From assembly GCF_000497125.1 (NCBI RefSeq), contig NC_090599.1:992001-1056000 (forward strand): a stretch of 64,000 nucleotides of DNA, given 5' to 3'. Made by a program: the position numbers and the translations under genes. The DNA comes from Spironucleus salmonicida. Its lineage: Eukaryota. Below the pieces are notes generated by a model. The model made no database searches, was not told the DNA's origin, and saw only the letters and a program-made list of their open reading frames with translations. Below, one piece after another: positions 5,601 through 60,746 of the stretch. Every line of letters starts with the position of its first letter. The stretch's first letter is position 1.

Positions 5601-5957
5601 TTTCCCGCACTTGCAGGGCGTGGTCTGGTTTCGTGTGCAGGCCTGGCAGTCGGACCTGTCGATCGCGTTTGCCGGGCAGACCTGACCGTTCGCGCACTGG
5701 CTCACGTAGGTCGAGCAGAAGTTGGGGAGGCAGGCGTCCGCGTTTGGGGATAGTAGGTAGAAATCGATGCACGTTCTGCAGACGTCGCCATTGCAGTTTT
5801 CGCAATTTCCGAAATGGAGCCGTCTGTTGCATTTGCAGCTGAATCCCTCCCTTAGATACCTGCACGGGGTGCATGTGGCGTACGGGTTTGGCGACATGCA
5901 GGAGTAGTTGTTTCTGCAGCCGTTATTGGACAGATTTAGGTCGCACTATCCTGCCAT
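2688..5957 (-). CDS. Cysteine-rich membrane protein (CRMP, VSP-like), 1089 aa
   Basis: ORF pieces 2688, 3048, 4146, 4608 and 4938 share one frame joined by TAA/TAG=Gln. Dense CxC/CxxC motifs, C-terminal TM, tail HRPKKFYTQHNMFSK, stop within AGTGA. Confidence 0.92.
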
Positions 5958-6356
5958 TTTTTGTAAAATTGATAAATTAGCGATTATAGTAAATGGAGAC
6001 GATTTTTAGAGGTTTATTTAGCGATTTGTAGTGTAACTGAAAATTGCGATAAATTCAATTTAATACTTAATATTTTTTACACGTAGAACATGAATTTTCT
6101 TATATACTTTAATTATTTTTAGTAAAACCATGTTATAACGTGATAATAGATGCTATCTTTTTCGAACAAATATAAAAATTCATTATTTACTATTTATACT
6201 AACTTTATTTACTATTTGTACTCAATAGTAAATTTATATAAACGCATATATAACCAATTATATATCGATTTCCACTCCTTTTATACGGACTTTTACTTTA
6301 CTCAACTTAATGTTATATATTATTATACCCTTTTAATTCTTTTATAACCGACAGTT

Positions 6357-9300: not shown

Positions 9301-10307
9301 GTTAACCAAAACTTCCATGTATTTAAACGAACGACTGTCCATTAAACTAATATTGTGTAATAGAAAAAACAGAATGCGATATTTGCGGTACATAAAGTAC
9401 CCAATGTAATTGTGGTATTTCGATAAATTGCTTATCATGTAGCACTTCAGGCACATGTTCTAGCTGCCTACCTGGTTATGGCCCTGATGCTTATAACTCT
9501 TGTTCAGTACCAATTTGTAGCATTGAAGTTCCTTTAGGAAGTTATTGCAGTGGTCCAAATGAAGTTAAAGTATGTCCTGCAATTAAAAATTAATGCAATT
9601 GCGGCAACGCTTAAAATTGTTCCACATGCACACCAGATTTTAACGCTTGTGCAACTTGTATGGGAGGCTCTATTATGATTAACGCATAATGTCTTGTTAG
9701 CCCGCCTGGATTTACTGGCATCTGTGAAAGCACACCAGATTCATCCTTCTGTATTCCTGGACATTCTTGTATTTTAGTTCCCTCTTGCTCTCCCTGTAAA
9801 TACGTTTCCCCTGGCTATTTTTGTAATTGTGAAGGTAATTTGTACGATACGTGCACTAGCTGCAATCGCGATAAATGTGGTAGCTGTTTTATAGGTTACG
9901 TTCTTCTGAACCAAGCTTGTGAAATAAAATGTGAATCTGATAATGACTGCAAAATTGGTGAAATGTGCGCAACTACACAGACTTGTATGCCTTGTGACGG
10001 CGCTCAAACCTGCAATTGCAGTGGCATGAATAACTGTGTTAACTGCAATCACCAATAATGTATTACCTGTGCAGCTACTTGGCAGTTAGGCCTTCTAAAC
10101 TAATGTGACATGTGCCAATCCGGCTTTGAACTCATTGAAATGCAGTGCCTTCCGGTTTAGAAAGAACCTAATCAGGTCCTTATCGTTACCAATATCGTTG
10201 GAATGATTGTAGCCTGCATAACAGCGGTGGGATTCATCACTGGAGTGGTCGTATTTTACGCAAAGCGTCCTAAGAAATACACCTTCTAGCACGCCATAAC
10301 TCAATGA
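6357..10307 (+). CDS. Cysteine-rich membrane protein (CRMP, VSP-like), ~1316 aa
   Basis: ORF pieces 6357, 6804, 8604 and 9840 are in frame. CxC/CxxC modules, C-terminal TM, tail KRPKKYTFQHAITQ-TGA. Start codon uncertain. Confidence 0.9.
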
Positions 10308-11298: not shown

Positions 11299-12099
11299 AT
11301 GCCTCCTTACCCATCGCTGCATGACGTTGCAACATCACCAATTTTATCTTCCTAAATTCTGTATAATTTAAGAATGACATCTTTTATAGCGCATATAATG
11401 GTTATAGTGTTAGGTATTTACACTAGATTTCCAGTTTTCTTTGTTTAATTTACAAATTGGACTAATATGATGTCAACAGTTTATGCAACTTTTGCACTTC
11501 TATCTAGCTATTATTTTGCCAGACCTAAATTCTACAATGATGCTTCTTTGACCAAAGTTTTTGTACGCTCTCGGCCCTCCAAACTTGCGCATGCGACATA
11601 AATTCTTCTACAGTTAACCCTTCCGTTACATGGTATTGTTACTAGTGTTTTTTGGCCTTTAGTATTTCCAGAAGCAGATACTTCCCATGGAGGCTTCGAT
11701 TATACATACTTTTTGCTTTCCCATGGAACTACACTGTTTTTGCTTATATTGGAAACTTTATTTAATAAAGTGTAATTTGATAGAAAAATACTCAAATTTC
11801 ATGCGATTTATATATTTGTTTATGCCTTACTTGCTCTTTTTCTTTTGTATAGATATAACTTCGCTGTTTATTCATTTGTGGATTTTCGAACATCCAAATT
11901 AAATCGTATAATCTTAGCTTTCATACCACTATTAGTTATAATTTTTAATGAATTTGCTATTCTTCTTGCTCTTTTAAGAAATAAAGCCGTTAAAAGTGCA
12001 CTAGACATTGATATTCCTAAGATTCAAAAAAGATACAAACGATTTATTAGAGAAAGGAAAAGTTTTGCAAATGAAAGTGACGGTAGTAGTTTTGAGTGA
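11299..12099 (+). CDS. Multi-pass membrane protein (rolling stone/FAR-17a-like), 266 aa
   Basis: About 6 hydrophobic segments with FTNWT, VFWP and HG motifs. Stop within AGTGA. Confidence 0.7.
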
Positions 12100-12432
12100 A
12101 TGCTTTATGCAAGAACACAGTATTTTATATGATTAATGTGTTTATTTTATGTCTTATATTAACAATTACGTACAGACAATACTTATTTTCATGAAATTTT
12201 TTGAGTATTATTCATACAGACTATATAATGTTATTAAAAATAATGTTTTAACCAACGTATTTATACAGGAAATAACTCTTAAAATCAGCTTGCTAATTAA
12301 ACAATTAAATTAATAGTATTTTTAGAACATGGTTTATATTTAATATTAATATATTTACAATAAATAATAAGATACAAATTCTATATAATACTTATTACTA
12401 CGTAAATTTTTGTCCACTTCATAAAATTTGAA

Positions 12433-31963: not shown

Positions 31964-33604
31964 ATGTCTGATGATTCTAATAATAAGGAGCCAGGAAATA
32001 TAGAAGTTCTTAGTAGTTTAGTAACGTATAAACTTTTAAACTAGTCTGATTTAAAGAGGGTAATCATACCTTAAGATGTTTAAGTTTGTTTGATAAAAGA
32101 AGTTTTTATATAACAACTGAAATTTTCTACACCAGAACAACTAAAACATCTCACTTTATGTGGTTCAAGCAGGATGTCAAAATAAGAAATAGATTTTACT
32201 TTACCATAATGCCTCATTACTCTCACATTATAGAATATTTGTGTTGAATAATTGCTTATACCATAAAGTGTAGAAAATATGAATCTAATTAATGTTATAG
32301 CTAATCAAGTTTTTATCTTATAAGATGCTAATATTTCAAGATTAAATCTTATTGGTTTGTATCTAATCAAAGATAGTTCTTAAATAATTAATTTTATATA
32401 AAATGGAACAAGTTTAACATATTTAAACATATTTAGAGTTAATTTAAAGTATCTGGTTATTTCTTAGTCATTAATTTATGTTTATTTAAAAGAAGTAAAA
32501 GGTAATATTTTATTTTCAGAGTGTTCATAAATTTAATAATTATCACTTACTTCATGTTAAACTTAAAACTTGCTTATACCAAACTCTGTTAATACTTTAA
32601 TTTTATTAGATACTCTCCTTAATAATTTAATAATTTAATAATAGAATTCTATATATGATTTTACATTTGAATAAGCATATAATATTAATTCTCGAGGAAT
32701 AATAGAATAAATATAATTTTTTATGAGATTTAATACGAAGTTAAATAAAATTTGTTTATCTAATATAAAATTTACTGATTTATAAATCCCTAAATATATT
32801 TTTAAATGCTTTCTAAATAATTTAAGGTGTGAAATATTAAATATTCTATCAGAGAATTTAACTAATATTTCATTAGTGGAGGTTTATGTAGTTTATTTTT
32901 CAGATTATAATGAATAGTTAAGTTCATCTTTATGTTAATCTAACTAACTATCTTAACTATAAATAGGTTCAGTATAACCGGATAAAGATGAACTGGCAAC
33001 TAGATTCATTGCTAATAATTATAAATAAATATCATAATTAGAGCTTAATTTATAATAGTCTATTTAAGATACCGTTTGTCTCAAAGAATTGTACCTTTCA
33101 AATATTTCTGTGAACATGCTTATTATTTAATAATCTATTTAAATATTAGTTCTTGATAACGTAAAAATAAATTATCTTACACTCAATAATTATACAAGTT
33201 GTCAAAAGCTACATCTTAACACGAGTAATGTAATAATATGCAATTTTATGGAATTTTTATTTAACTCAAACTAGGATATAGAAATTGTTTTATAAAATTT
33301 TAGGGTTAACTAATTTTTACTACCAAGGAAATTAAAAACCATATTACTCATAAATTGTTTCACCAATTTTATTACCGTCGCGAGAGACGGTGGGTATTTC
33401 CAATACCGCGTCCTTGCCGATACCGCCACAGTCGACTTACAGAACGACATTACCAGAGCGGTAGAAAACGAAGTCCTCCAGCACCCAGTACGCCTTACGT
33501 TCCCCACCCATCTAGCCGCCTACGTAACCTTGCGCACCCAGAAGTAGCAGGCCGTCGCGCGTATCCAGAACTTTCTAGCCCAAAGCGAGTTTATCCCAGA
33601 CTGA
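31964..33604 (+). CDS. Leucine-rich repeat-like (FNIP/BspA-like) protein, 546 aa
   Basis: Repeating L.IP.SV..L.L units (LLIPQSVENM, LLIPNSVNTLIL). Frame spot-checked. Confidence 0.65.
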
Positions 33605-35983
33605 GTATTTTATATATAGCACTTTCGCTCCAAATGGAGTTCCTCAGGCACTTGCAATCCTCACCAGCCCCGCTGACGAAAACCGTTAAGTACACCAGGC
33701 ACGTACCAGAACTGGCCAAAATCCACTCACTGTCGCCCCTGATCTACTCGACCCCCACGCACTTCTGCAGCGGAGACGCGAGCCTCCCGCTGCCTAAAAG
33801 CACGATGGTCACGTTCGCAGCGCCCGGCATTCTGGCCAGAAGCGACAACACGCTCTTCCTCTACAGCCAGGAGGGCGCGCGGGTCAATGTCCGCGTCAGC
33901 TTCCGGCGCGTCCAGCACGCCGTGACGCAGGCGCAGCTCTACCAGGACTTCGTCTTCGCGCTCACGCGGAACACGATCTACGTCTCGGACCTCGCGAACA
34001 CTGCGAGCCGGGAAATCCACTTCGAGCACGACGTCCGGCAGTTCCAGATCGTGGACGGCCGGCTGCTCGTCCTGAGCAACAGGCTCTGCCTCTGCGCGCT
34101 GGACGGGACGGTATAGATGGAGTGGCTCCTGGAGGGGGCGGAGCGAATGGAGGCCACCCCGGAGGGCATTCTCGTCGGAGGCGGGGGCAGGGTGTGGCTC
34201 GTCCGGGAGGGCGGCGTGCGGAGCGTCGAGATCGCGGAGCCGGTTCGGTTCCTGAGGTTCCCGCTCGTGGTGTGCGCTGCGCGGGCGTTTGGCCTGAGCG
34301 TGGGGCCTGACGGCTCGCTGGGGGTAGCGAGCGTGTTCGAGGGCTCGCTGGAGCTCTGCGGTGACCTGTTCGCCCGAAACGGGGGCCTGGTGGAGGCCGT
34401 GACGCTGGCGTGCAAATGAATAAAGTAGAAGCTCAGAGACGACTCGCCATGCAGAGGTATGCCATCAGCCCGATTCCGGTGAACACAAACACCAGTCCAG
34501 CGATCACCGCGAAGTGCGTGTAAATGTTGGAGAAGTCCGAGAGCAGCAGCACGCTTGGGAACGGAAATTCGTTTTCCGACTGGACGAAGTTGTAGAGGTT
34601 GGTGTGGTTCGCCACCATCTTCTCGTAAATCACAGCTCGCTCCGCCACGGTGCCGGGCATCGTAACCCCAAATGTATGGTCTTGATACGTTGATGTGCAC
34701 TGCAACTTGCCGTTGAACACGTAGTCGATGACGAAGCTGAACGCTATCTGCCGGGACTGGTACGACTCCGGCTAGACACCGAGGATGTAGTTCGCCACCG
34801 AGTGCCCTTGCGTCGAGCACTTTTCGGAGTCGTACGTCTAGATTTGCACGCAGAGCTCGTCGCGCCTAAAGAAGGCCTGAATGTTCTGGAAGCAGCTGAG
34901 CTTGGCCTCCAGGAGAACGGACTCCTCGTCCAGTATTACGTCGTTCTCGTCCCTGTAGGTCATGTAGCTGATGAGACTACCAGAACCGATAGCCTCGAAC
35001 CCTGGTATCGCGACATCGAGCCTCAATATGAACCCCACCTTATTGATGAACTGGTCCTTCGTGTTTATCTCCGGGGCGGACGAGTAGTTGAAGGCCTCCG
35101 TGATGACGCGCAGCTGGTTGTGCACGCTGACCGTGTTCTGGTTGCATTCTGTATGAGTAGAAAACATCACGTTGTTACTGAACGCCAGAATCTGTGTCGC
35201 GGAGATGTAGCCGACGGGCTTCAACTAGGAGTAGCACGGGCTGGCGATCGACAGGATGAGGTGCGGCTCAGCCAGAATAACTTGGTCCAGTTTGTTTATC
35301 TTCGTCACGAGGTGCAGCCGCGTCTGGATGGTCCGGTTCCGCTCGAAATGAACGAAAAATTCTTTGAAGGTGGCGACTTCGGCCGGGTCCGTCAGCGTGC
35401 TGAGCGGTTGTTTGAAATGCTTTGTGGCCTTCTGGTCGAACGCTTACGTGGAGTCGTAGTAGCCAGCCTCCCCGCTTACGCCCTGGACCCCGAAGGATCT
35501 CCACCGCTCCTCGGCGAAGTACTCGAATTTGACCACGGGTGCCGTGATCTGGCAGTCGAGCGGCGTGCCGTCCATCTGGAGGAACTCGTGGCCCGCCGAC
35601 CGGTTGTAGCGGAGCACCAGGTCGTCCCAGCAGTTGGTCGCGTTCATCTGCGTGTGCTGGATGGTCTGGACGGCCCCTGGGGACTCCAGGGAGCCCACCA
35701 GCTTCACCTGGTATGACAGCAGCGATTTCGCAGCGATGAGGGTGTATTTCGCTACATCTGAGGATAGGTCAAATACTATGATGTTTGGCACGCTCTGAAA
35801 GTACGTGAACTCTGAGTCTATGGTCTGGACCTTATTCGCTGAGTCAAGATACTCTAGCGAGCATGTTGACACGCGGCCATCAGCTGCTACGCAGAGCTCA
35901 TCGTTCTCAGGAGCCGGCGTCAACACCAATTTGAATATCTTCGATTACGTGTCACCTTCAAGTACTGCGTTGTCCTGGAAGCA
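33349..35983 (+). repeat. Outer inverted duplication, copy A (~2.6 kb)
   Basis: Reverse complement of 54445-57079 (coordinates sum to 90428). Mirrored ORFs with only scattered substitutions. Confidence 0.97.
33634..34419 (+). CDS. Hypothetical protein, 261 aa (copy A)
   Basis: MEFLRHLQSS..., reads through TAG 34114, GC3-rich. Confidence 0.8.
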
Positions 35984-36013
35984 TCGTATTTCCTCTGCAA
36001 CAACCAGAAACAT
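34433..36013 (-). CDS. Type I membrane protein, 526 aa (copy A)
   Basis: Short leader MFLVVAEEIRCF, Cys-containing ectodomain, C-terminal TM FAVIAGLVFVFTGIGLMAYLCM. Confidence 0.85.
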
Positions 36014-36654
36014 TTTATTTAGTTTATACATTATCATTATAAATATAGATATTTACTCGTTATTTATCGAAGTTAAAATTATAATTTGTTTAAAAATAAT
36101 AAGTTGATAAAATATCATAAACTTTTTTATAGTTCATCTTATGATTGTTATTTAATTATTTAGTTAATAAATAAATAAAATTAGAATTCTAATATATTTT
36201 AAGATAAAGTTCATACTTATAAATTTAACTTTTAAAGATGTACTCGAAGCCTTTGTGATAAAATAATATTTAAATATTTTTGATTTTAAGAAAAGCTAAC
36301 TATTATAAAATACTTTATTCTTGAGATTTTAGAATTTTTGAGTATATAGCACAAGTAGTAATAATAATATATTTGTAAACTGATAATATTCTACAATTAT
36401 GCGATTCAAACTTCTCATAACAATAAAATTAAAGAAACATTCTACTATAGTTACAATAAAGTAATAATTCTAGTAAGCTTAACCAATATACTCGTAAATT
36501 ACTTATCCTATACTCGTAATACGCCTAATTAATGCAATAATTTAATTAATTTTTACCAGAGAACATTTTTAAGCAACAATAATGCTTATTTTATTTGAGT
36601 AAAGATATTCCTTAAAATATTAGGTTGAATTTAATAATTATATCTAATATTTAT

Positions 36655-36726
36655 TCCCAAATGGTATAACGGTTAGCATTTCTGGTTTTCACCCAGGAGA
36701 TCCGGGTTCGATTCCCGGTTTGGGAG
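36655..36726 (+). tRNA. tRNA-Glu (TTC)
   Basis: TCCCAAA/TTTGGGA acceptor stem, loop TT-TTC-AC, CCGGG-TTCGATT-CCCGG T-arm. Confidence 0.95.
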
Positions 36727-36925
36727 TAATTTTATTTTAGATCATTAAGACGTTATATTATTATTAACCAATAGTAATTTTTATATTGGTCATACGGGCG
36801 TACGTATTAATATTATTTAAATTTTAATTTGATTAACATTTATCACCCAATATTAACAATAAAGTCATATTAAATTAATTAATGTTTTACTTATTATTAT
36901 ATGTTGGTATGTATTATATAGTTAG

Positions 36926-39900
36926 AATGACATAAATTTGTAGCGCAGCCGCTGACTGCGGGTCCTCCCACTACAGTGTGTGCTATAGGACCACCAGTGG
37001 AACTATCCAGCTGGTTAATCTAAGATCTGAAAATGTAAGTTCTAAGTAACCATCGACTGCGTATGTCTCGATAGAATTCACTGACGTAAAGCAGCTCCCC
37101 CCAGACAGCATTTACTATGGATCATCACCACCAGATACGTTGAACTACGCATTCTTTCCTAACTGGAAGAACTACTTCTTCGATGCTGACGAGATAGTGT
37201 GCTATCCCAATGTTCCCTCAGTCCCTTCCAAGAACCACCGATCGATTCGGGTTACCTGCGCCAGTCTTTTTGAAGGGTTCATGTTCCAAGCAGTAAAAAG
37301 TGTTCGCTGCGCCTCCGGCTTGGACACCGTGGAACTAGCATTCTTAATACCAAGTGTGGCTCGCGCCCAGCACCTCGACTTCATTAAGCTTTGCGCGTAG
37401 TCGGTTGAGAAGAGAACTCCATGCAAAATAACATTGATATACGAAGGTAAAGCTGCACTGGGATCTGCTGAGGCAATAGGTGATTTTGGCGGATTTACAT
37501 TCGATAAAGCCACTAAGTAAAATCACGAATCATGCAACCTGGCAGCTAGTAATATTGACAATGTAGTTGATCAATTAGTACGTGCTGATTTTGTAGACTT
37601 GCGTTTCCACAATCGCCATCTACTTTACCAAAGAATCATGGAATTGAAAAATGATTATACTAGTGGTGATGTTTTCTTAGATCTTACTGGAATTTTTGAC
37701 CCGTTTCAATTCTATGGCCACTATGCCTTATATAGCTGGTTCAAAGAGCGTGGCACCACGGATGGATTTGAAAATGGAGCTAAATAATTCCTTTAAACAA
37801 TACCATTCTATGAAGACGGGGAACGCTGTTGCTCATAATATTTCCATTAAAGATAAATTTCGATGACATATGTTGATTTCAGATAATAAATGCTAGAATA
37901 TATTCGAAACTTTAATGATAGCTCTGAATTCAAGTTTATTAAGCCATGCCAGGAATTTAATAAACTGATAAAAATTGTATAAAACCGCAAAGTCCTTAAA
38001 AAAGTGCTAACATAGGCACTTTGTTTCGAAGACTTTAATAGTAATGAACGTATAGTGTGTATTTGTTAGCAACTAGTATCCAGCCATTCTTAATAATATC
38101 AGTCTTTATTATATAAAGCTGTCGCTGACATATCTTTATAATAATGGAAAAAACGACTTAACTCTAATTTTTTAATTATTATGGGCGAATTTCAAAGCTA
38201 AACAATTATAGAGAGTTATAAATTCAGTAATGATAAAATTGGAATAAGTTTACCTTCTGGTATTTACCAGCAAATATGTACAGCTGTCTGTGCTTAGCTA
38301 GCAAATAACTTTGGTTTATTTCTTCAATCAAATAAATGCAAAACATTTAAAATTACTGGAGGATTTTCTTAAAGTCCATTTTTACTAAACTAATTAGCTC
38401 AAAATTCATATATCTAACAAATTACCAAGAAAAGCAAGGATAGTTTGATATAACATATTAAAAAATCTCTCATTATTCCTCCTTATGAGATTGTTAAAAA
38501 TGCAATTGGTATGAAATAGTCTATGACAGATTCCGAAAATTTAATATATAAACACTACTATCTAAATATTGATAAAAGTGGTAATTTAAAGTATGAAGAG
38601 GTGAATGTTACTACTTCGCACAAGAATCGAGTCTGCATTGACGAGGGAACATCTGGATCACTGTTAAGCTATATACCAGCGGGTCATAAGTACACAGATG
38701 ATATGACTATCAATGATTTACCTGCATAACAGGATAGGATCCGTAAGATAGATGATGTTGAGTTTAAAGCTGGCACTAAAACTCCTTCATTTTGCGTGGT
38801 AGATATTCCAGCAGCCTATTAGCTAGCCACGTCTGGACTTTCGTTATAACATAGCGAAGATTTATCCAATTACCAATAAGTGTTCGATAAATATTTTACA
38901 TTATAGATGCTTCCAATTTCCGATATTCGTAGAATATTTCTTTTTGGAAATGTTAATAAAGATGCCTTATCTGAATAGTTATTATCTAATAATCATGATG
39001 ATGCAACACTGGTATAGAGTTCAAAGCCTATGAGTGCAAAGGAAAAGTTACTACGCAAAAAGTAAGAGGCACAAGCAAAATAAGAAGTTGAACCAGAACC
39101 AAAGTCAACCTCAGTCGAAGAGGTTGGGCAAAAGCTCACTGCAAAATAAAAGATGGCACTAGCAAAGTTATAAAAGACGTAACAATAGACTACGGATGTA
39201 TCACCGTCAACTAGTGGGGTCCATATTAATGAGTTCCTTATTGTAGATTATTGGAAGAGATATTTGTATCAAAACTAGCAAGTCTAATATCCATTAAACC
39301 CATAGATAGTGTAACGTTATACATTTAATGGTCAGTCTATAGAACTAAAATTACCAGTTGCATATTTCTATATTTCTCATCTTTCTCATTTTTATCATAC
39401 TTTTATATAGGACTAAGGTGATATGGTAAGTTATTACAATTAGCTTGGTCTTACGCTTACAGTTCCTTGCGCGGCAAAATAGTAGCATTTAACTTTTTTG
39501 CGAGAGTGTTGTAGAGTAGCGAATCTTCCTGATGATATAGTTTTTGTATATGAACCAAATTCAGCATTTTCTTTTATTTTTCATTAAGATCGACTTCGTG
39601 GTACCAATATATTTAAGGATGGATACGTTATTGTAGTTGATGTTGGCGGTGGAACTACAGATGTATCGCTGCTGAAGGTAGATACAGAAGGTGGTACATT
39701 TAATGTTATTAATTTTTATGAAATCAACTATGCAGGAAATAATGTCATAGACAAAGTTTTTGAGAACCTTGGTGTATAATCAGGACTGCTACAGTAACTT
39801 AGTTCAGGAACAAGATCACAATTTCGTGAGTCTGTGAAATCTTAAATTGAGCTTCTAACAGTATTAAACTCTTCTGATAGAAATGTTGAAGAGGTTATTA

Positions 39901-40369
39901 TCGTCATAGAAAGTAAGAAAAACAAAACTTCAGATGCTGAAAATTTGGCTTTAGAATAATTATATGCGATACTTGATGGCTTGTCATCATGTTATAATGA
40001 TTCAGAATAGAGATTAGTAAAAATTAGGGAGTATTAAATTAGCTCAAAGTTGTTTTATGATTCTATTGGTTTTGTTTAGTAATAGATTTAAGAAAGGACG
40101 TTAGATTTTTCTGATCTAAATAGAATACTTGAAACAAATTATAAGGTATAAATAGTCTGTGCTGGTGGAATGGGTTCATCTTTAAGCTTTAGATCCAGTT
40201 TTACGGAAAAAATTAAAACATTAAAATATAGTTACATAAAATTATAAGAGACTCCCAATTTCTAATCTGCTATTGCCAGAGGTGGATTATTCTTAAAGTC
40301 TGAAAAAGACTATGTTGATTTTGGTGCTCCGTTTATACAAAGGGGCAGTGAGGAAGAGGAAAAATTCAT
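36926..40369 (+). repeat. Palindrome left arm (~3.44 kb)
   Basis: Reverse complement of 41685-45128 (sum 82054). The mirrored ORF-track entries are identical. Confidence 0.97.
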
Positions 40370-41015
40370 CGATAACAATGAAATTCTTATGAAATCTACT
40401 GTTCATATTCTTACTTTCAGATATATTTAACTAGCTCTCAGTATTCAAAAATCAACGTTTATAGAATCTGGTAAAAGATGGTCTTAAGGTGATGTTAATA
40501 TTACAGCTACTTCCTCATATAATGGAATTTCCTTTGCTGTTCATGTTGAACATAAATGGTCTGTCATAGGAACCACATCAAATTATTTTTATTTATGCCA
40601 AGTCCCTCTCGAATATATTAACTTGCTACACCCATAAGAAAATAGTACACCTGCTGGTTGGGTTTAGTATTTGTATGATATTAATATTACACTTTCAAAA
40701 CCTGATAATATATTAAACATTTTAACTGATATTGATAAAGACAAGAGACCTTTTGCTGCACTAACTGTAGATGTTAGTTTAAAAAACTCTTCGACTTGTA
40801 TAACTTCCAATTTTAACTTGTTTAGATATTTTCCTGTAGATTTATAATCATTATAGCTTGAAAAGGAAAAAGGGAAAATATTTATTTCATAATGTTGTGT
40901 ATATCATAATTTAGTACAGTATATAGATAATGTTAAAAAAAATTATGGTAAACATACAATACTATGTAAAAAATGTGTTTTAAAGTTACCTATATAGAAG
41001 TGGAAACTTAAGTGA
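36927..41015 (+). CDS. Divergent Hsp70/HSPA12-like protein with two tandem actin-fold ATPase domains, 1362 aa (copy 1)
   Basis: Domain 1: AADCGSSHYSV, LIPS...YEGKAAL, ITGGFSQSPFL. Domain 2: LTVP...YEPNSA, VVDVGGGTTDVS, AGGMGSS, SAIARGG. Stop within AGTGA. Confidence 0.8.
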
Positions 41016-41035
41016 ATGAAAATAAATCATTAATC

Positions 41036-44000
41036 TCAAATAATTTTCCAATGTTATCCTGGTAATTAAACAACACATTTATTAAAAATAACAAGAGAGT
41101 TATCATGTTAGGCCTATAAATCAGAAATAAATTATGCTAACTTCGGGTAATAAATTGTGTCAGTAATAAATTTTTCCCCATTTTCAGAATCTAATTTAAA
41201 TCCTTTCATATCTAGTGGTATATATCTAAATAGATTAAAATTTTATGTTATTTTAAGTTTCGAATCACCAGCAATATTAACAGTGAAACAAATATTGCAA
41301 AATGGTTTTTTCATCGAATCTTCTCCTTATCCCACTAAAAGTGTAGTAAGAGGCTTTTATATATACGTTTCAATCGAATATACAAATTAAGGTACACCCA
41401 TTTATGTTATAGTTTCATTAGGATGTAATAGATTCACATCTTCTATAGGAATTCTGACTAAGTAAAAATAATGATCTGTTAATCCAAAAATTGAGTATGT
41501 ATGATTAACATGAATTATAAATTCAATGCCTTTATTCCAGCACTATACAAAATTATTAGCTGTTTATTAAGTCCATCGTTATCCACCTTAAATGATATCT
41601 GTTTTCTAATATTGTGACTATAAACCAGCATTTCTAAATGTTATAATTTGTAATTTACTTTCACATAAAATTTTGCTCTATTTAATGAATTTTTCCTCTT
41701 CCTCACTGCCCCTTTGTATAAACGGAGCACCAAAATCAACATAGTCTTTTTCAGACTTTAAGAATAATCCACCTCTGGCAATAGCAGATTAGAAATTGGG
41801 AGTCTCTTATAATTTTATGTAACTATATTTTAATGTTTTAATTTTTTCCGTAAAACTGGATCTAAAGCTTAAAGATGAACCCATTCCACCAGCACAGACT
41901 ATTTATACCTTATAATTTGTTTCAAGTATTCTATTTAGATCAGAAAAATCTAACGTCCTTTCTTAAATCTATTACTAAACAAAACCAATAGAATCATAAA
42001 ACAACTTTGAGCTAATTTAATACTCCCTAATTTTTACTAATCTCTATTCTGAATCATTATAACATGATGACAAGCCATCAAGTATCGCATATAATTATTC
42101 TAAAGCCAAATTTTCAGCATCTGAAGTTTTGTTTTTCTTACTTTCTATGACGATAATAACCTCTTCAACATTTCTATCAGAAGAGTTTAATACTGTTAGA
42201 AGCTCAATTTAAGATTTCACAGACTCACGAAATTGTGATCTTGTTCCTGAACTAAGTTACTGTAGCAGTCCTGATTATACACCAAGGTTCTCAAAAACTT
42301 TGTCTATGACATTATTTCCTGCATAGTTGATTTCATAAAAATTAATAACATTAAATGTACCACCTTCTGTATCTACCTTCAGCAGCGATACATCTGTAGT
42401 TCCACCGCCAACATCAACTACAATAACGTATCCATCCTTAAATATATTGGTACCACGAAGTCGATCTTAATGAAAAATAAAAGAAAATGCTGAATTTGGT
42501 TCATATACAAAAACTATATCATCAGGAAGATTCGCTACTCTACAACACTCTCGCAAAAAAGTTAAATGCTACTATTTTGCCGCGCAAGGAACTGTAAGCG
42601 TAAGACCAAGCTAATTGTAATAACTTACCATATCACCTTAGTCCTATATAAAAGTATGATAAAAATGAGAAAGATGAGAAATATAGAAATATGCAACTGG
42701 TAATTTTAGTTCTATAGACTGACCATTAAATGTATAACGTTACACTATCTATGGGTTTAATGGATATTAGACTTGCTAGTTTTGATACAAATATCTCTTC
42801 CAATAATCTACAATAAGGAACTCATTAATATGGACCCCACTAGTTGACGGTGATACATCCGTAGTCTATTGTTACGTCTTTTATAACTTTGCTAGTGCCA
42901 TCTTTTATTTTGCAGTGAGCTTTTGCCCAACCTCTTCGACTGAGGTTGACTTTGGTTCTGGTTCAACTTCTTATTTTGCTTGTGCCTCTTACTTTTTGCG
43001 TAGTAACTTTTCCTTTGCACTCATAGGCTTTGAACTCTATACCAGTGTTGCATCATCATGATTATTAGATAATAACTATTCAGATAAGGCATCTTTATTA
43101 ACATTTCCAAAAAGAAATATTCTACGAATATCGGAAATTGGAAGCATCTATAATGTAAAATATTTATCGAACACTTATTGGTAATTGGATAAATCTTCGC
43201 TATGTTATAACGAAAGTCCAGACGTGGCTAGCTAATAGGCTGCTGGAATATCTACCACGCAAAATGAAGGAGTTTTAGTGCCAGCTTTAAACTCAACATC
43301 ATCTATCTTACGGATCCTATCCTGTTATGCAGGTAAATCATTGATAGTCATATCATCTGTGTACTTATGACCCGCTGGTATATAGCTTAACAGTGATCCA
43401 GATGTTCCCTCGTCAATGCAGACTCGATTCTTGTGCGAAGTAGTAACATTCACCTCTTCATACTTTAAATTACCACTTTTATCAATATTTAGATAGTAGT
43501 GTTTATATATTAAATTTTCGGAATCTGTCATAGACTATTTCATACCAATTGCATTTTTAACAATCTCATAAGGAGGAATAATGAGAGATTTTTTAATATG
43601 TTATATCAAACTATCCTTGCTTTTCTTGGTAATTTGTTAGATATATGAATTTTGAGCTAATTAGTTTAGTAAAAATGGACTTTAAGAAAATCCTCCAGTA
43701 ATTTTAAATGTTTTGCATTTATTTGATTGAAGAAATAAACCAAAGTTATTTGCTAGCTAAGCACAGACAGCTGTACATATTTGCTGGTAAATACCAGAAG
43801 GTAAACTTATTCCAATTTTATCATTACTGAATTTATAACTCTCTATAATTGTTTAGCTTTGAAATTCGCCCATAATAATTAAAAAATTAGAGTTAAGTCG
43901 TTTTTTCCATTATTATAAAGATATGTCAGCGACAGCTTTATATAATAAAGACTGATATTATTAAGAATGGCTGGATACTAGTTGCTAACAAATACACACT

Positions 44001-45127
44001 ATACGTTCATTACTATTAAAGTCTTCGAAACAAAGTGCCTATGTTAGCACTTTTTTAAGGACTTTGCGGTTTTATACAATTTTTATCAGTTTATTAAATT
44101 CCTGGCATGGCTTAATAAACTTGAATTCAGAGCTATCATTAAAGTTTCGAATATATTCTAGCATTTATTATCTGAAATCAACATATGTCATCGAAATTTA
44201 TCTTTAATGGAAATATTATGAGCAACAGCGTTCCCCGTCTTCATAGAATGGTATTGTTTAAAGGAATTATTTAGCTCCATTTTCAAATCCATCCGTGGTG
44301 CCACGCTCTTTGAACCAGCTATATAAGGCATAGTGGCCATAGAATTGAAACGGGTCAAAAATTCCAGTAAGATCTAAGAAAACATCACCACTAGTATAAT
44401 CATTTTTCAATTCCATGATTCTTTGGTAAAGTAGATGGCGATTGTGGAAACGCAAGTCTACAAAATCAGCACGTACTAATTGATCAACTACATTGTCAAT
44501 ATTACTAGCTGCCAGGTTGCATGATTCGTGATTTTACTTAGTGGCTTTATCGAATGTAAATCCGCCAAAATCACCTATTGCCTCAGCAGATCCCAGTGCA
44601 GCTTTACCTTCGTATATCAATGTTATTTTGCATGGAGTTCTCTTCTCAACCGACTACGCGCAAAGCTTAATGAAGTCGAGGTGCTGGGCGCGAGCCACAC
44701 TTGGTATTAAGAATGCTAGTTCCACGGTGTCCAAGCCGGAGGCGCAGCGAACACTTTTTACTGCTTGGAACATGAACCCTTCAAAAAGACTGGCGCAGGT
44801 AACCCGAATCGATCGGTGGTTCTTGGAAGGGACTGAGGGAACATTGGGATAGCACACTATCTCGTCAGCATCGAAGAAGTAGTTCTTCCAGTTAGGAAAG
44901 AATGCGTAGTTCAACGTATCTGGTGGTGATGATCCATAGTAAATGCTGTCTGGGGGGAGCTGCTTTACGTCAGTGAATTCTATCGAGACATACGCAGTCG
45001 ATGGTTACTTAGAACTTACATTTTCAGATCTTAGATTAACCAGCTGGATAGTTCCACTGGTGGTCCTATAGCACACACTGTAGTGGGAGGACCCGCAGTC
45101 AGCGGCTGCGCTACAAATTTATTTCAT
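41036..45127 (-). CDS. Divergent Hsp70/HSPA12-like tandem ATPase protein, 1363 aa (copy 2)
   Basis: Mirror of copy 1 up to EEEEKFI, then a homologous but diverged C-terminus ending KCVVQLPGQHWKII. CCACTT motif upstream. Confidence 0.8.
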
Positions 45128-45128
45128 T
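41685..45128 (-). repeat. Palindrome right arm
   Basis: Reverse complement of 36926-40369. Confidence 0.97.
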
Positions 45129-50796: not shown

Positions 50797-51456
50797 AGTG
50801 AAATATTGTTTTTTCACTCTATGCTTAATTCTGCAAGCGATTTTAAAGACATTGTAGTAATTGAAAGTTGAAACGAATCTTTTTGAGATATTTCAACGGA
50901 AAGAGTATTTTATGGCTAGATATTTAACTATGGTTAAATTGGTGGCAAAGTGTAGTGTCTGCGTAGCTAGGTCTTGAAGTCTTTTAGTTTTAGTTTAATT
51001 CTCATTTTTGCTATGTGTTTTTAGTAAAATATTTAAATGATGAAAGTTACTTCCTAAAACAATTTAATGATGTTTAATAATTGTTTGAGGAATTTATTTA
51101 GTTTTTATTATTAATATTTTGTATAGTTTACTGATTCAAACATATGTTAATATAAGGAATTACTCTATAATAATAATTTAAATTAAGTTATTTAAATATA
51201 CTTCGAAAAGTTTTATTACTAATGTGAAATTTTTCAATGTATAGAAATAGAAAATTCTACTTACATTCAGTATTTATGTAATAGTTATATTTATGTAAAT
51301 CTAAGTAAATAAAAATATTATATGATAAATATGATTTAGTTTAAGGTTTCCAATGTATAATTTGTGAGAAAATTTAATGGCTAATTAATAAGTTTTACTG
51401 AAAAAGATTAATGTGAATAGCAATTTCAATTCCTAATTTATGATTAAATAGAAATT

Positions 51457-51527
51457 CTTCCAAATCGGTACTCGAACCCGGATCTCCTGGGCGGAACCAG
51501 AAATGCTAGCTGTTATACCATTTGGGA
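51457..51527 (-). pseudogene. Decayed tRNA-Glu copy
   Basis: Aligns with the 36655 tRNA but has a 6-nt anticodon loop (TTCCGC) and substitutions in the D-loop, T-stem and acceptor stem. Confidence 0.85.
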
Positions 51528-54249: not shown

Positions 54250-54414
54250 ATAATTTAGGAATGAAACGTTATTATTATTATCTTTATATTTTATAATAAG
54301 TAGTATTTTCAAATTAATATAATTATATAGAGGTTATAATCTTACAGTATAGTACTTTAATTTTTTTATCTAGTGAATTACCTGTAAACACAAGTATATA
54401 ATAATAATCCAAAA

Positions 54415-55995
54415 ATGTTATTGGTTTTATTAGACACAGTCAGGTGTTTCCAGGACAACGCAGTACTTGAAGGTGACACGTAATCGAAGATATTCAAATT
54501 GGTGTTGACACCGGCTCCTGAGAACGATGAGCTCTGCGTAGCAGCCGATGGCCGCGTGTCAAAATGCTCGCTAGAGTATCTCGACTCAGCGAATAAGGTC
54601 CAGACCATAGACTCAGAGTTCACGTACTTTCATAGAGTGCCAAATATCATAGTCTTCGATCTATCCTCAGACGCAGCGAAATACACCCTCATCGCTGCAA
54701 AATCGCTGCTGTCATACCAGGTGAAGCTGGTGGGCTCCCTGGAGTCCCCTGGGGCCGTCCAGACCATCCAGCACACGCAGATGAACGCGACCAACTGCTG
54801 GGACGACCTGGTGCTCCGCTACAACCGGTCGGCGGGCCACGAGTTCCTCCAGATGGACGGCACGCCGCTCGACTGCCAGATCGTGACCCCCGTGGTCAAA
54901 TTCGAGTACTTCGCCGAGGAGCGGTGGAGATCCTTCGGGGTCCAGGGCGTAAGCGGGGAGGCTGGCTACTACGACTCTACCAAGCCGTTCGACCAGAAGG
55001 CCACAAAGCACTTCAAACAACCGCTCAGCACGCTGACGGACCCGGCCGAAGTCGCCACCTTTAAAGAATTTTTCGTTCATTTCGAGCGGAACCGGACCAT
55101 CCAGACGCGGCTGCACCTCGTGACGAAGATAAACAAACTGGACCAAGTTATTCTGGCTGAGCCGCACCTCATCCTGTCGATCGCCAGCCCGTGCTACTCC
55201 TAGTTGAAGCCCGTCGGCTACATCTCCGCGACACAGATTCTGGCGTTCAGTAACAACGTGATGTTTTCTACTCATACAGAATGCAACCAGAACACGGTCA
55301 GCGTGCACAACCAGCTGCGCGTCATCACGGAGGCCTTCAACTACTCGTCCGCCCCGGAGATAAACACGAAGGACCAGTTCATCAATAAGGTGGGGTTCAT
55401 ATTGAGGCTCGATGTCGCGATACCAGGGTTCGAGGCGATCGGGTCTGGTAGTCTCATCAGCTACATGACCTACAGGGACGAGAACGACGTAATACTGGAC
55501 GAGGAGTCCGTTCTCCTGGAGGCCAAGCTCAGCTGCTTCCAGAACATCCAGGCCTTCTTTAGGCGCGACGAGCTCTGCGTGCAAATCTAGACATACGACT
55601 CCGAAAAGTGCTCGACGCAAGGGCACTCGGTGGCGAACTACATCCTCGGCGTCTAGCCGGAGTCGTACCAGTCCCGGCAGATAGCGTTCAGCTTCGTCAT
55701 CGACTACGTGTTCAACGGCAAGTTGCAGTGCACATCAACGTATCAAGACCATACATTTGGGGTTACGATGCCCGGCACCGTGGCGGAGCGAGCTGTGATT
55801 TACGAGAAGATGGTGGCGAACCACACCAACCTCTACAACTTCGTCCAGTCGGAAAACGAATTTCCGTTCCCAAGCGTGCTGCTGCTCTCGGACTTCTCCA
55901 ACATTTACACGCACTTCGCGGTGATCGCTGGACTGGTGTTTGTGTTCACCGGAATCGGGCTGATGGCATACCTCTGCATGGCGAGTCGTCTCTGA
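54415..55995 (+). CDS. Type I membrane protein, 526 aa (copy B)
   Basis: Paralogue of 34433-36013 with the same length but a different leader, MLLVLLDTVRCF. Confidence 0.85.
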
Positions 55996-57079
55996 GCTTC
56001 TACTTTATTCATTTGCACGCCAGCGTCACGGCCTCCACCAGGCCCCCGTTTCTGGTGAACAGGTCACCGCAGAGCTCCAGCGAGCCCTCGAACACGCTCG
56101 CTACCCCCAGCGAGCCGTCAGGCCCCACGCTCAGGCCAAACGCCCGCGCAGCGCACACCACGAGCGGGAACCTCAGGAACCGAACCGGCTCCGCGATCTC
56201 GACGCTCCGCACGCCGCCCTCCCGGACGAGCCACACCCTGCCCCCGCCTCCGACGAGAATGCCCTCCGGGGTGGCCTCCATTCGCTCCGCCCCCTCCAGG
56301 AGCCACTCCATCTATACCGTCCCGTCCAGCGCGCAGAGGCAGAGCCTGTTGCTCAGGACGAGCAGCCGGCCGTCCACGATCTGGAACTGCCGGACGTCGT
56401 GCTCGAAGTGGATTTCCCGGCTCGCAGTGTTCGCGAGGTCCGAGACGTAGATCGTGTTCCGCGTGAGCGCGAAGACGAAGTCCTGGTAGAGCTGCGCCTG
56501 CGTCACGGCGTGCTGGACGCGCCGGAAGCTGACGCCGACATTGACCCGCGCGCCCTCCTGGCTGTATAGGAAGAGCGTGTTGTCGCTTCTGGCCAGAATA
56601 CCGGGCGCTGCGAACGTGACCATCGTGCTTTTAGGCAGCGGGAGGCTCGCGTCTCCGCTGCAGAAGTGCGTGGGGGTCGAGTAGATCAGGGGCGACAGTG
56701 AGTGGATTTTGGCCAGTTCTGGTACGTGCCTGGTGTACTTAACGGTTTTCGTCAGCGGGGCTGGTGAGGATTGCAAGTGCCTGAGGAACTCCATTTGGAG
56801 CGAAAGTGCTATATATAAAATACTCAGTCTGGGATAAACTCGCTTTGGGCTAGAAAGTTCTGGATACGCGCGACGGCCTGCTACTTCTGGGTGCGCAAGG
56901 TTACGTAGGCGGCTAGATGGGTGGGGAACGTAAGGCGTACTGGGTGCTGGAGGACTTCGTTTTCTACCGCTCTGGTAATGTCGTTCTGTAAGTCGACTGT
57001 GGCGGTATCGGCAAGGACGCGGTATTGGAAATACCCACCGTCTCTCGCGACGGTAATAAAATTGATGAAACAATTTATG
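54445..57079 (-). repeat. Outer inverted duplication, copy B
   Basis: Reverse complement of 33349-35983. Confidence 0.97.
56009..56794 (-). CDS. Hypothetical protein, 261 aa (copy B)
   Basis: Near-identical to 33634-34419. Confidence 0.8.
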
Positions 57080-57165
57080 TGTAAGAGACAGTTAAATTTA
57101 TTATCTTGTCGTATTTTGCTGAAATAAATTGAAAATTCAATTTTATTAGAGTTGATAATTTACAT
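56824..57165 (-). pseudogene. 3' remnant of the LRR-like gene 31964-33604
   Basis: The last ~85 codons are duplicated. Upstream sequence is unrelated or diverged, with an in-frame TGA just before ATG 57165. Confidence 0.6.
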
Positions 57166-58987: not shown

Positions 58988-59222
58988 TTTATATTTTTGT
59001 ATGCAAAAATATTTAATTTAAATACTTTATATTATATATAAGATACAAGACCCGTGAAGCTATTTAAACTAATATTTAAATTTCATAGTATACAAATTAC
59101 CTGGCAGCATTATTATATTATAACATCAAAATTTCATATCAATCAAATCTGCAGTCATGGCTAAAATCCCTAATCACTGTCGATTTATTATGAATTTGAT
59201 ATTGAAAATATAACATATTTAT

Positions 59223-59294
59223 TCCCAAATGGTATAACGGTTAGCATTTCTGGTTTTCACCCAGGAGATCCGGGTTCGATTCCCGGTTTGGGAG
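59223..59294 (+). tRNA. tRNA-Glu (TTC), identical to 36655-36726
   Basis: Same 72-nt cloverleaf. Confidence 0.95.
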
Positions 59295-59661
59295 AATTTT
59301 TATTTTCTAGTGGTGCCAGGGACCGTTCAACGGCAGAGTCCAACCCTGGACAACCACTCTCATAAATTCCGACTGATTAAATCACTTATCGCATATATGC
59401 TTAATGCCCCTACCCGTGCTATCGAGGATGCGCGCACTAGGAATTCACAGGTGTCACTACAGACGCAGGAGTTTAACCGCATTGCTAACACCGGATGCCA
59501 TTCTAGGCATCCTGGACTGCAGCTGAATAGCTGCCTCTGAAGTTCGCGCACAGTACTATTGCCGTGGCATTTACCAATCGATATACCCTAGTGGCGGGCC
59601 CTGCCGCTCAGTCCGGGGAGAGACAGTCCAGTGGGCCAGGCTACTGCTATACAGCTACCAT

Positions 59662-59744
59662 ACCAACTTGGCCGAGTGGTTAAGGCGTGTGACTTAAGAT
59701 CTCATGGGCGTCAGCCCGCGTGGGTTCAAGCCCCACAGTTGGTA
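59662..59744 (+). tRNA. tRNA-Leu (TAA)
   Basis: ACCAACT/AGTTGGT acceptor stem, TGGCCGAGTGGTTAAGGC D-arm, CT-TAA-GA loop, long variable arm, GTTCAAG T-loop. Confidence 0.93.
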
Positions 59745-60746
59745 ATTTTGCTGATAGGCATCTACGGGAAGCTGTAAAGCTAGGTAACCTGGCACATAGC
59801 TGACAACCTGCTTTCCAAGGTTGAGGCAAGAGGGCCGCCCAGGGTGAGGCTGGCACCCTAGCGCAAAACAGTACGATCATGCCATGTTATCCCGAAGCAA
59901 TTACGCTTTGCGACTAGCAGCAAGCGTGCCAGTCCTGCTAGGTTGCCACATCGCCAGGTATAGTTTTGCACACAGATAGAAGACGCCTTCCTATCAGCTG
60001 ATACTCTTCAGAAACACTAATTAATAATCTGAAGTGAGAGAAGTAATTTTGCATGTATCCCAGCTTCGAAAAAACTTGTTTCGATTGCTATCCGCAGGTT
60101 AGGGATTGAGAAATGGGCAAGCTTTTAGATAAATTTTCAGCCGCCATAAAATACCATTCGAGACAAGTTACCAACTTAATGTAAAATATTTAGAATTATA
60201 TGTTATAGAATATACATTTTATTATAATTTTATAGTAGGTGTACACTCAGAATTATTTTAGGTATATCGTATTTATTCTGCTGAGTTCGCCTTCCTTAGA
60301 CCAAAAGTTTAATCTACGATAGTCAGCTTTCTAGCCACGCTTCGATTAAGCTGAATGGAATGACTGGATGCCAACAATTATCGAAGTAATTGTATTGGAT
60401 GGCAAAGTCAATAAATATATTGTATCGTCTATATATTTTAGATGCTAGACACTTAACAAGCTGTAGAGGTTTATCACAAGTTGGGATCGCAATATATACT
60501 AAATACTAATGCTTGCGCATAATTAACATTTATTGCCCACTTTGACGATATGGCTTCCCACCAGCCCTGCATTGGTTGAGTTCTGCAAATCGCCCAGGCC
60601 TGGCCCTCATTTACCCTATTGTGGGGGACACGCCTGGCCTCTCCGCTGGCCCTGGATGGCGGACTCTGGGCTGCCGCATGTCCAACGACTACGCCCCCAA
60701 GGCGCGTACCGGGTGCGAGGAAGTCTCCGCCCCGGATACCGTTCTG

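Follow-up and report, generated by a model that had tools for sequence, protein, structure and literature searches.

Inverted genes A and B of Spironucleus salmonicida: identical 5' parts, diverged tails and a probable history of gene conversion

How can two genes that lie tail to tail be the same, base by base, over most of their length and be strongly diverged from one codon onward? The question is raised by a palindrome in the window analysed here, i.e., the whole stretch of 64,000 nucleotides of Spironucleus salmonicida DNA, in which two convergent genes (A and B) are read under translation table 6 (TAA/TAG as glutamine). We consider, at a probability of roughly 0.7, that they are paralogs of long standing in tail-to-tail order, and that the part coding for the ATPase is in concerted evolution through gene conversion. 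Gene conversion as the mechanism, a selection that keeps the tails different and a function for the tails are what we infer from the arrangement described below.

The palindrome and its two arms

The first-pass annotation described about 3.44 kb of inverted identity that starts near the ATG and ends at 40369/41685. Compared base by base with the reverse complement of the other, each arm of 3444 nt matches at 3443 positions, in agreement with this description; the boundaries listed in Table 1 were obtained by the same comparison, which trimmed an inverted-repeat call of 36926-40424 / 41630-45128. The sole mismatch is at 36931 in codon 2, where gene A has ACA (Thr) and gene B has AAA (Lys), and there are 0 differences over 3438 nt of the arm. 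The N-terminal 1148 residues of the two proteins are therefore equal save residue 2, and the identical part makes up the first 84% of the pair. An inverted repeat of 3.4 kb with such exactness cannot have originated by chance. The arms have the highest identity of any repeat in the window, yet they are mostly AT-rich. In the translations of both genes TGA is the stop and TAA/TAG are glutamine; under table 11 no open reading frame of at least 80 amino acids lies over the arms. The stop codons, at 41013-41015 in gene A and 41036-41038 in gene B, are separated by the 20 nt of 41016-41035, the spacing first noted for them. An entry identical to the gene A sequence is present in public protein collections, and gene B falls into the same 90% cluster. 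Besides the tRNA gene given in Table 1, a tRNA-like stretch at 51455-51525 received no call from ARAGORN or from Rfam at gathering score.

Table 1. Positions of the genes, the palindrome parts and nearby features in the window.
Feature	Position	Strand	Description
Gene A	36927-41015	+	1362 aa, 69 in-frame TAA/TAG; giant, Hsp70-like, A-type tail (translation)
Gene B	41036-45127	-	1363 aa, 79 in-frame TAA/TAG; B-type tail (translation)
Left arm	36926-40369	+	Gene A codons 1-1148 plus 1 nt 5' of ATG
Right arm	41685-45128	-	Gene B codons 1-1148 plus 1 nt 5' of ATG
Spacer	40370-41684		1315 nt; A codons 1149-1362, B codons 1149-1363, 20-nt gap
GC-enriched first 200 codons	36927-37526	+	Mirror 44528-45127
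Inner boundary	40350-40369	+	15-nt purine run GAGGAAGAGGAAAAA (40350-40364), codes acidic linker SEEEEK
tRNA-Glu(UUC)	36654-36727	+	199 nt 5' of gene A, in non-repeated left flank (ARAGORN; Rfam tRNA 55.3 bits)

An assembly or polishing artefact had been feared for this identity, i.e., that the arms really differ and were equalised by consensus polishing, or that one arm is absent. The relevant passages of PMC9509377 give PacBio data at 161x (2.6 Gbp in 267,495 reads, which works out at about 10 kb per read) and state that Pilon was run with short reads to polish the long-read assembly; such a procedure could homogenise repeats in principle. Contigs and unitigs assembled from raw short reads, none of which bridges a 3.4-kb arm, speak against it. 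In the DNA run X1 one unitig (36932-40369) accounts for the arm, with a depth of 24.9, the spacer being at 11.2 and the flank at 14.9; in the DNA run X3 the corresponding depths are 396.6, 163.3 and 136.9, and the arm is thus 2.2-2.4 times as deep as the spacer in both runs. The break points of the arm unitig are precisely 36932 and 40369. Fixed differences between arms would give 1:1 bubbles; X1 has none and X3 has one minor bubble (depth 26 versus 335). The spacer forms one 1375-nt unitig (40340-41714) in X1 and X3, with 30 nt of each arm and hence both arm junctions, and contigs of X3, X5 and X6 lead from the right arm into gene B's own upstream flank, with the loose end ...CTTCCACTTTTCAA. 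An arm unitig that is unbranched and about twice as deep as spacer and flank is not a polishing artefact. Please note that X1 is possibly the source sample and X3 is from the same sample, which limits their independence from the reads used to polish the assembly. The RNA-like runs, which belong to a different study, are in line with two real arms; no listed run is recorded as RNA, and for X5-X8 this nature is a guess. Probable RNA contigs were found over both tails in both runs examined, and RNA-like contigs go past the gene B ATG on its 5' side, by 57 and about 1200 nt. X5/X6 give no cover of the left flank at 36400-36757, of the surroundings of the stops (about 40915-41056) or of the 5' junction of gene A, and no conclusion is based on these gaps; the contig depths of arm versus tail in RNA-like runs cannot rank expression. 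Both junctions are also present in the older gene models, of which P0033 holds the arm only, P0003 the arm end with the A tail and P0034 the arm end with the B tail. With the unitig structure, the approximately twofold depth in two DNA runs and these older models, the artefact is already largely refuted, and we regard it as extremely unlikely.

The shared Hsp70-like part and the two tails

Genes A and B may represent a lineage-specific family of giant Hsp70-like proteins in diplomonads, a kinship that the sequence comparisons hint at rather faintly. The probable layout is a degenerate Hsp70-like ATPase, a charged linker, a second Hsp70-like ATPase with an intact DVGGGTTD and the tail. This DVGGGTTD phosphate motif aligns with DLGGGTFD of Hsp70, and it is where Pfam HSP70 (PF00012) matches, at residues 897-929 only and with 15.4 bits, under the cut-off of 20.6 (E 0.0057). 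The best sequence match in PDB is Hsp70 1B with an E-value of 0.33; remote phmmer matches (P0013-P0032) carry HSP70 above the Pfam cut-off. An AlphaFold model of residues 760-1362 built on an 8-row alignment has a mean pLDDT of 45.3, and a Foldseek search with this low-confidence model places DnaK, BiP and Ssz1 on top (E 1e-10 to 1e-8; TM 0.25-0.30), so that the predicted DnaK-like structural alignment over about 590 columns is taken as a lead only. The same applies to the ESM Atlas features of residues 1-620, a lead only, for which the nearest clusters are Hsp70 (score 0.93, 139-142 shared features). When residues 1-600 were compared with residues 760-1148, the best BLASTP E-value for an internal duplication was 0.11, which is not significant.

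The last ~215 codons were called homologous and strongly diverged in the first-pass annotation, and the peptides that it quoted (KCVLKLPIQKWKLK / KCVVQLPGQHWKII) are the C-termini of the two genes. The tails comprise 214 (A) and 215 (B) codons, and their comparison bears out that description: 79/214 residues are identical (37%), the nucleotide identity is 53% (47% at third positions), and dS is about 1.17 with dN about 0.66. The dN/dS of the C-termini, a check proposed together with that description, comes out at 0.56; as dS is close to saturation, this value cannot serve as evidence that divergence was selected for. Both tails retain YFYL, NLLHP, NFNLFRY and G-x-x-F, which they have in common with each other and with Hexamita relatives, and since these shared motifs are kept in both, both tails look functional. 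Over 34 tail residues of the putative orthologue P0006 an alignment count gives 13/34 matches to A and 9/34 to B, i.e., about equal distance. We consider the tail as a beta-rich domain of about 215 residues that is possibly client-binding. Its AlphaFold fold was set aside with pLDDT <50 throughout, and a search of the ESM Atlas with the tail gave a best score of 0.85 (DUF5716_C), below the usable level.

Fragments from relatives (P0005, P0006 and P0008, which are short, putative orthologues) are 49-65% identical to the arm, against 100% between copies A and B, a much greater likeness than either copy has to these short fragments. A search of 1.84 billion representative proteins gave 30 matches at E <= 0.001, with no third paralog among them that could be a tail donor, and a word-based homolog search returned the query's own cluster alone among 8000 scored candidates.

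Gene conversion and its alternatives

Both ends of the arms are abrupt. Just outside the outer edge (36901-36925) 19/25 positions differ, and just inside the spacer (40370-40400) 18/31 positions differ. The promoters had been described as unrelated, which is what we see: 5' of the two ATGs the match is 20-40% in 25-nt windows, the level of unrelated AT-rich DNA. The arm identity stops 5 nt past the purine run at the inner boundary, and the conservation among diplomonad relatives ceases at APFIQ, right before the acidic linker. The junction of arm and tail is in frame and at a homologous codon in genes A and B, and because of this position an exchange guided by homology is required. Neither arm end has a divergence gradient; this is the pattern of one recent event and is not in itself proof of repeated conversion.

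The base composition of the arms is uneven. GC3 is 0.51 in codons 1-100 and 0.48 in codons 101-200, falls to 0.17-0.34 further into the arm and is 0.16-0.17 in the tails; the overall GC of the arm is 0.35. The window contains a second inverted repeat (33329-36016 / 54412-57099) with a GC content of 53-69%, which starts 3 nt before a start codon and extends more than 1 kb beyond the stop codon of its gene into the neighbouring gene. Its mismatches per 300 nt (9, 3, 0, 2, 1, 4, 2, 10, 27) are crowded at the arm edges, the pattern expected of conversion tracts. According to passages of PMC9509377, GC in S. salmonicida is 44.7% in duplicated regions versus 30.7% in the rest. If long-term conversion had a GC bias here as it has elsewhere, GC-richer arms would be expected, and the AT-rich arms count against the conversion reading. 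Either long-tract repair in the palindrome has a weak bias, or homogenisation reached most of the arm only lately.

In the preferred reading, gene conversion within the chromosome, from one inverted arm to the other and on repeated occasions, would keep the first 1148 codons identical, with a latest event that may have been very recent and may have covered the whole arm, and the tail domains would have escaped the exchange long ago. Neutral sites of the tails have on average over one substitution each and those of the arms have none, and the earlier suggestion of an old inverted duplication, homogenised by conversion while the loop escapes, fits these values. The tails are now too different to recombine, and the boundary would thus sustain itself. 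As its place is the acidic linker that follows the second Hsp70-like ATPase domain, it seems that only the beta-rich tail domain escaped. The outer boundary would coincide with the start codon, beyond which there is no coding constraint. Two proteins with a common ATPase part and two different tails would then be made in the cell. The absence of any gradient and of any mismatch in 3438 nt is what a single recent event would leave, in which the 5' 3.44 kb of an old, diverged, convergent paralog were overwritten once, or a recent inverted duplication of these 3.44 kb was fused to the tail of an older paralog; the arm, mostly AT-rich like unique coding DNA in its GC3 and unlike the GC-rich repeat nearby, also speaks for it. 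Against it, homologous exchange needs similarity and the long-separated tails are 53% identical only, a joint formed without homology needs luck to fall in frame at a homologous codon, and the GC enrichment of the first 600 nt points to exchange of an earlier date there. We therefore consider a single event unlikely.

Identical inverted arms of 3.4 kb are a good substrate for crossover, and if such crossovers flipped the 1.3-kb spacer often or under regulation, the tails would be swapped exactly in frame between the unrelated upstream regions of genes A and B. Such an invertible switch is very improbable in our view: Pfam on 23 neighbouring ORFs of the window detected IFT122, CMS1, POLR3C, adenylate kinase, HAD and WD40 proteins, none of them from a recombinase or transposase family, the arms consist of long stretches of coding sequence and not of short sites for recombination, and probable RNA contigs cover both tails. 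Moreover, the proteins would be unchanged after a flip but for residue 2; since the arms are identical, a flip would merely exchange which promoter drives which tail. Homogenisation could also be templated by a transcript, a cDNA of one gene repairing the other, with a tract that begins at the transcription start by the ATG. Diplomonad 5' UTRs are very short, and the identity sets in 1 nt ahead of the ATG in genes A and B and 3 nt ahead of it in the second repeat, as such a template would predict. The second repeat, however, passes its stop codon by more than 1 kb into the neighbour, which an mRNA would not give, RNA-like contigs extend far 5' of the gene B ATG (57 and about 1200 nt), and no reverse transcriptase is among the 23 scanned ORFs, all of which leaves this reading next to negligible. 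Decidedly unlikely, too, is a working device, either for domain exchange by arm crossovers that flip the spacer at an appreciable rate or for read-through over the 20-nt gap that gives a 3.4-kb hairpin RNA. If the former were true, cells would differ in which unrelated promoter drives which tail of the shared Hsp70-like ATPase, a eukaryotic and recombinase-free counterpart of bacterial shufflons; the hairpin RNA, if formed, could feed RNA interference.

Known systems and what the gene pair means

Concerted evolution by conversion between inverted arms is a known process, and the A/B palindrome is most likely a clean but ordinary instance of it. In the palindromes of primate X and Y chromosomes and the inverted hsp70 pairs of Drosophila, conversion within the chromosome holds the arms on either side of a unique spacer at about 99.9% identity. 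Those arms are tens of kb to Mb in size whereas A/B is on the kb scale, and the spacer of A/B consists of the genes' own diverged 3' ends. The bacterial invertible segments by which C-terminal coding cassettes are swapped, namely shufflons and the phage tail-fibre systems Gin/Cin, have a site-specific recombinase of their own with short sites, and a single promoter serves the alternative tails. A/B is like them in having a constant 5' part and alternative 3' parts in inverted orientation, and unlike them in being two complete genes with two promoters and 3.4-kb arms, with no recombinase in the 23 ORFs.

In S. salmonicida itself, duplicates with a length of 2 kb or more and an identity of 95% or more, mostly single genes, make up 19.2% of the assembly, and the authors propose gene conversion for the surface-protein families (both from passages of PMC9509377). 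Compared with the duplicates in those passages, which have 44.7% GC and are mostly single genes, the A/B arms have 35% GC, and the pair is duplicated in part only, with an identity that ends at a domain boundary; those passages of PMC9509377 hold no description of the A/B locus. Among diplomonads, identical VSP gene pairs of Giardia muris (five tail-to-tail, two head-to-head) are described in part of PMC7641422, where recombination or gene conversion is invoked. They share with A/B the inverted identical genes and the intervening sequence, but they encode surface antigens and are identical over the whole gene, whereas A/B is Hsp70-like and identical over the first 84% only. That one part of a gene pair can diverge strongly while the pair undergoes conversion is known from theory and from examples, such as the primate red/green opsins in the passages of PMC3924837. 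As in those opsins, most of the A/B pair is homogenised and one functional part has diverged; the opsin genes are, however, in tandem with a small diverged exon, whereas A/B is inverted and convergent, its diverged part is a saturated domain of 215 codons, and selection is only presumed.

The palindrome accounts for the three partial gene models at this locus in the older assembly. Being AT-rich and at the same time the most identical repeat, it is a puzzle for the view that converted repeats turn GC-rich in S. salmonicida, and it may help to tell long-tract repair from GC-biased mismatch correction. A conversion that halts at a protein-domain boundary would make this gene pair a very clean natural example. 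The tail is marked as the likeliest carrier of the functional difference between proteins A and B, and a shared ATPase with two old tails gives a handle for the study of an unknown protein family.

Anatomy of the palindrome and support for its arms

The automated repeat search returned a single inverted repeat here (36926-40424 / 41630-45128), and base-by-base comparison trimmed it to two exact arms with a sole mismatch at 36931. Beyond the outer arm end 19 of 25 positions are mismatched, and at the inner end 18 of the first 31 spacer positions are, so both ends are abrupt. No long ORF was found across the palindrome under translation table 11; in-frame TAA and TAG are abundant, and table 6 gives two convergent ORFs, A and B, with 20 nt between their stop codons. 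Under table 6, further ORFs in the window give matches to eukaryotic families, namely IFT122 (E 1e-36), CMS1, POLR3C, adenylate kinase, HAD and WD40 proteins. Proteins A and B are the same over residues 1-1148 save residue 2 (Thr/Lys) and diverge thereafter in what we call the tails. The first-pass annotation had described convergent genes with identical 5' parts, diverged 3' ends and nearly abutting stops, and the arm comparison, the ORFs and the stop spacing bear out all its factual statements.

Features of the locus and its surroundings (window positions)
Feature	Position	Strand or orientation	Properties
Cysteine-rich membrane protein	2688-6131	-	1147 aa, GC3 0.78 (GC-rich), no Pfam match
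Cysteine-rich membrane protein	6150-10307	+	1385 aa, GC3 0.36, no Pfam match
IFT122 gene	12433-17037		
I2, second inverted repeat	33329-36016 / 54412-57099	inverted	2688 nt, 58 mismatches
tRNA-Glu(UUC), two copies	36654-36727 and 59222-59295	direct	22.5 kb apart, equal Rfam score
Arms of the A/B palindrome	36926-40369 and 41685-45128	inverted	3444 nt each
ORF A	36927..41015	+	1362 aa, 69 TAA/TAG codons, table 6
ORF B	41036..45127	-	1363 aa, 79 TAA/TAG codons, table 6
tRNA-Glu-like stretch	51455-51525	-	X3 contig aligns to tRNA-Glu at 36655-36737, 11 differences and 1 gap
tRNA-Leu(UAA)	59661-59745		

Contigs of four public runs were aligned to one arm plus the spacer, and none bridges an arm. 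In the DNA run X1 the arm is an unbranched unitig (36932-40369, depth 24.9), the spacer unitig (40340-41714) has depth 11.2 and the left flank 14.9; in the DNA run X3 the arm unitig (37406-40369) has depth 396.6, the spacer unitig (40340-41714) 163.3 and the left flank 136.9. Unitig breaks coincide exactly with the arm ends, and the spacer unitig includes 30 nt from each arm. Fixed differences between the arms would be expected to produce 1:1 bubbles; the X1 arm unitig has none, and the X3 arm has one minor bubble (~37369-37405, depth 26 vs 335) whose minor variant differs by 2 letters. X1 lacks this bubble, and an allelic difference, a subpopulation or an error could account for it. Please note that X1 is a possible source sample and X3 comes from the same sample, making this support not fully independent of the assembly. 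X5 and X6, RNA-like runs of a separate study, yield the same arm unitig. Public collections also contain three older partial protein models, which between them span both arm-to-tail junctions: P0033 (1140 aa) covers the arm alone, P0003 joins the end of the arm to the A tail, and P0034 joins it to the B tail. For these reasons the assembly or polishing artefact feared in the first-pass annotation is very unlikely as the source of the arm identity.

Kinship of the encoded proteins

The only Pfam match is one to HSP70 below threshold, at DVGGGTTD, and a PDB sequence search finds Hsp70 at E 0.33. A full HMMER scan of residues 163-1362 against 1.84 billion representatives gave 30 matches at E <= 0.001. 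Besides the protein's own fragment and a Hexamita protein with 28% identity (E 1e-23), these are short fragments that are 38-65% identical and a set of remote proteins. Among the 12 of these 30 scanned with Pfam, all 10 remote proteins carry HSP70 above the cut-off, which was not found in P0004 and P0011. Foldseek with the model of residues 760-1362, itself poor (mean pLDDT 45.3), places DnaK, BiP and Ssz1 chains at the top (E 1e-10 to 1e-8); language-model features set residues 1-620 nearest to Hsp70/HSPA12-like clusters, and direct comparison of the two protein halves found no significant similarity. We read A and B as lineage-specific giant members of the Hsp70 superfamily, with one clear ATPase domain, one probable, and a predicted beta-rich tail. 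Their nearest named relatives are two Hexamita inflata proteins, P0004 and P0035 (1106 and 1107 aa), i.e., there too the protein exists in two copies, on different contigs; by eye, their substitutions are scattered over the full length and not confined to the tail.

Old tails and probably homogenised arms

Aligned over 214 codons, the tails share 79 of 214 residues (37%), with 53% nucleotide and 47% third-position identity; dS is ~1.17 and dN ~0.66, and the resulting dN/dS of 0.56, resting on a nearly saturated dS, proves little. Judged from these values the tails are old paralogs, whereas the arms are indistinguishable. Motifs common to both tails, partly also to the Hexamita proteins and P0011, argue that both are functional. 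Identity stops after residue 1148 within the acidic stretch SEEEEKFI, 8 residues after the last family-conserved block, APFIQ, and at the DNA level a 15-nt purine run precedes the boundary; on this layout exactly the tail domain seems to have escaped homogenisation.

An in-frame joint at a homologous position between a tract of zero divergence and a saturated one would require homology-guided exchange. Since copies as diverged as the tails would be unable to recombine, the arms were presumably never far apart, pointing to repeated gene conversion (concerted evolution), with the latest event probably very recent and covering the whole arm. Theory and the opsins provide precedents for gene pairs that convert while one part stays divergent (PMC3924837). 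I2, whose arms lie 18.4 kb apart with the whole A/B palindrome between them, supports this reading by its start position, 3 nt upstream of an ATG, and by its mismatches, concentrated at the arm edges (9, 3, 0, 2, 1, 4, 2, 10, 27 per 300 nt). Both repeats end where coding constraint ends, which fits arm edges that would erode slowly until selection on the protein halts the erosion. I2 carries a divergent gene pair for membrane proteins of ~526 aa, and its far end falls inside the 3' end of the gene at 31964-33604.

The base composition is harder to place. Duplicated regions of the S. salmonicida genome have 44.7% GC vs 30.7% elsewhere, according to the genome report (PMC9509377), and the I2 arms have 53-69% vs 17-24% in their flanks. 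The A/B arms, at 35%, do not fit neatly with such GC-rich duplicates; GC3 is 0.51 for codons 1-100 and 0.48 for codons 101-200, 0.17-0.34 afterwards and 0.16-0.17 in the tails. With the arms separated by only 1.3 kb, long-tract repair between them may be little biased towards GC, or possibly exchange is rare over most of the arm. In the latter case a single recent event, which we consider unlikely, would fit in place of long-term concerted evolution. The first-pass annotation had also raised a possible invertible switch. By its geometry, recombination from one arm to the other would invert the spacer and exchange the two tails without loss of frame. The data give this putative switch no support: no contig spans an arm, none of the 23 window ORFs scanned matched a recombinase family, and X5 and X6 each have contigs over both tails. 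A flip would leave both proteins as they are save residue 2 and would alter only which promoter drives which tail.

Neighbouring genes and known parallels

The two large cysteine-rich genes are arranged head-to-head, and CxxC-type repeats are found in both proteins, as are a single membrane helix at the C-terminus and a short basic RPKK tail. Composition shifts inside the IFT122 gene, from ~31% GC at 12001-14000 to ~50% at 14001-18000, which may mark another repeat boundary with its partner outside the window. The tRNA-Glu-like stretch is probably a decayed tRNA copy, because neither ARAGORN nor Rfam at gathering score calls a tRNA there.

Inverted identical gene pairs in diplomonads and near-identical S. 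salmonicida duplicates have already been described: Giardia muris VSP genes form five tail-to-tail and two head-to-head inverted identical pairs (PMC7641422), and near-identical single-gene duplicates are abundant in S. salmonicida, whose published assembly has nine chromosomes and 14.7 Mb (PMC9509377). No description of the A/B locus was found in the literature passages searched. The interest of the locus is modest and lies in how cleanly its boundary follows the protein domains and in its GC puzzle.
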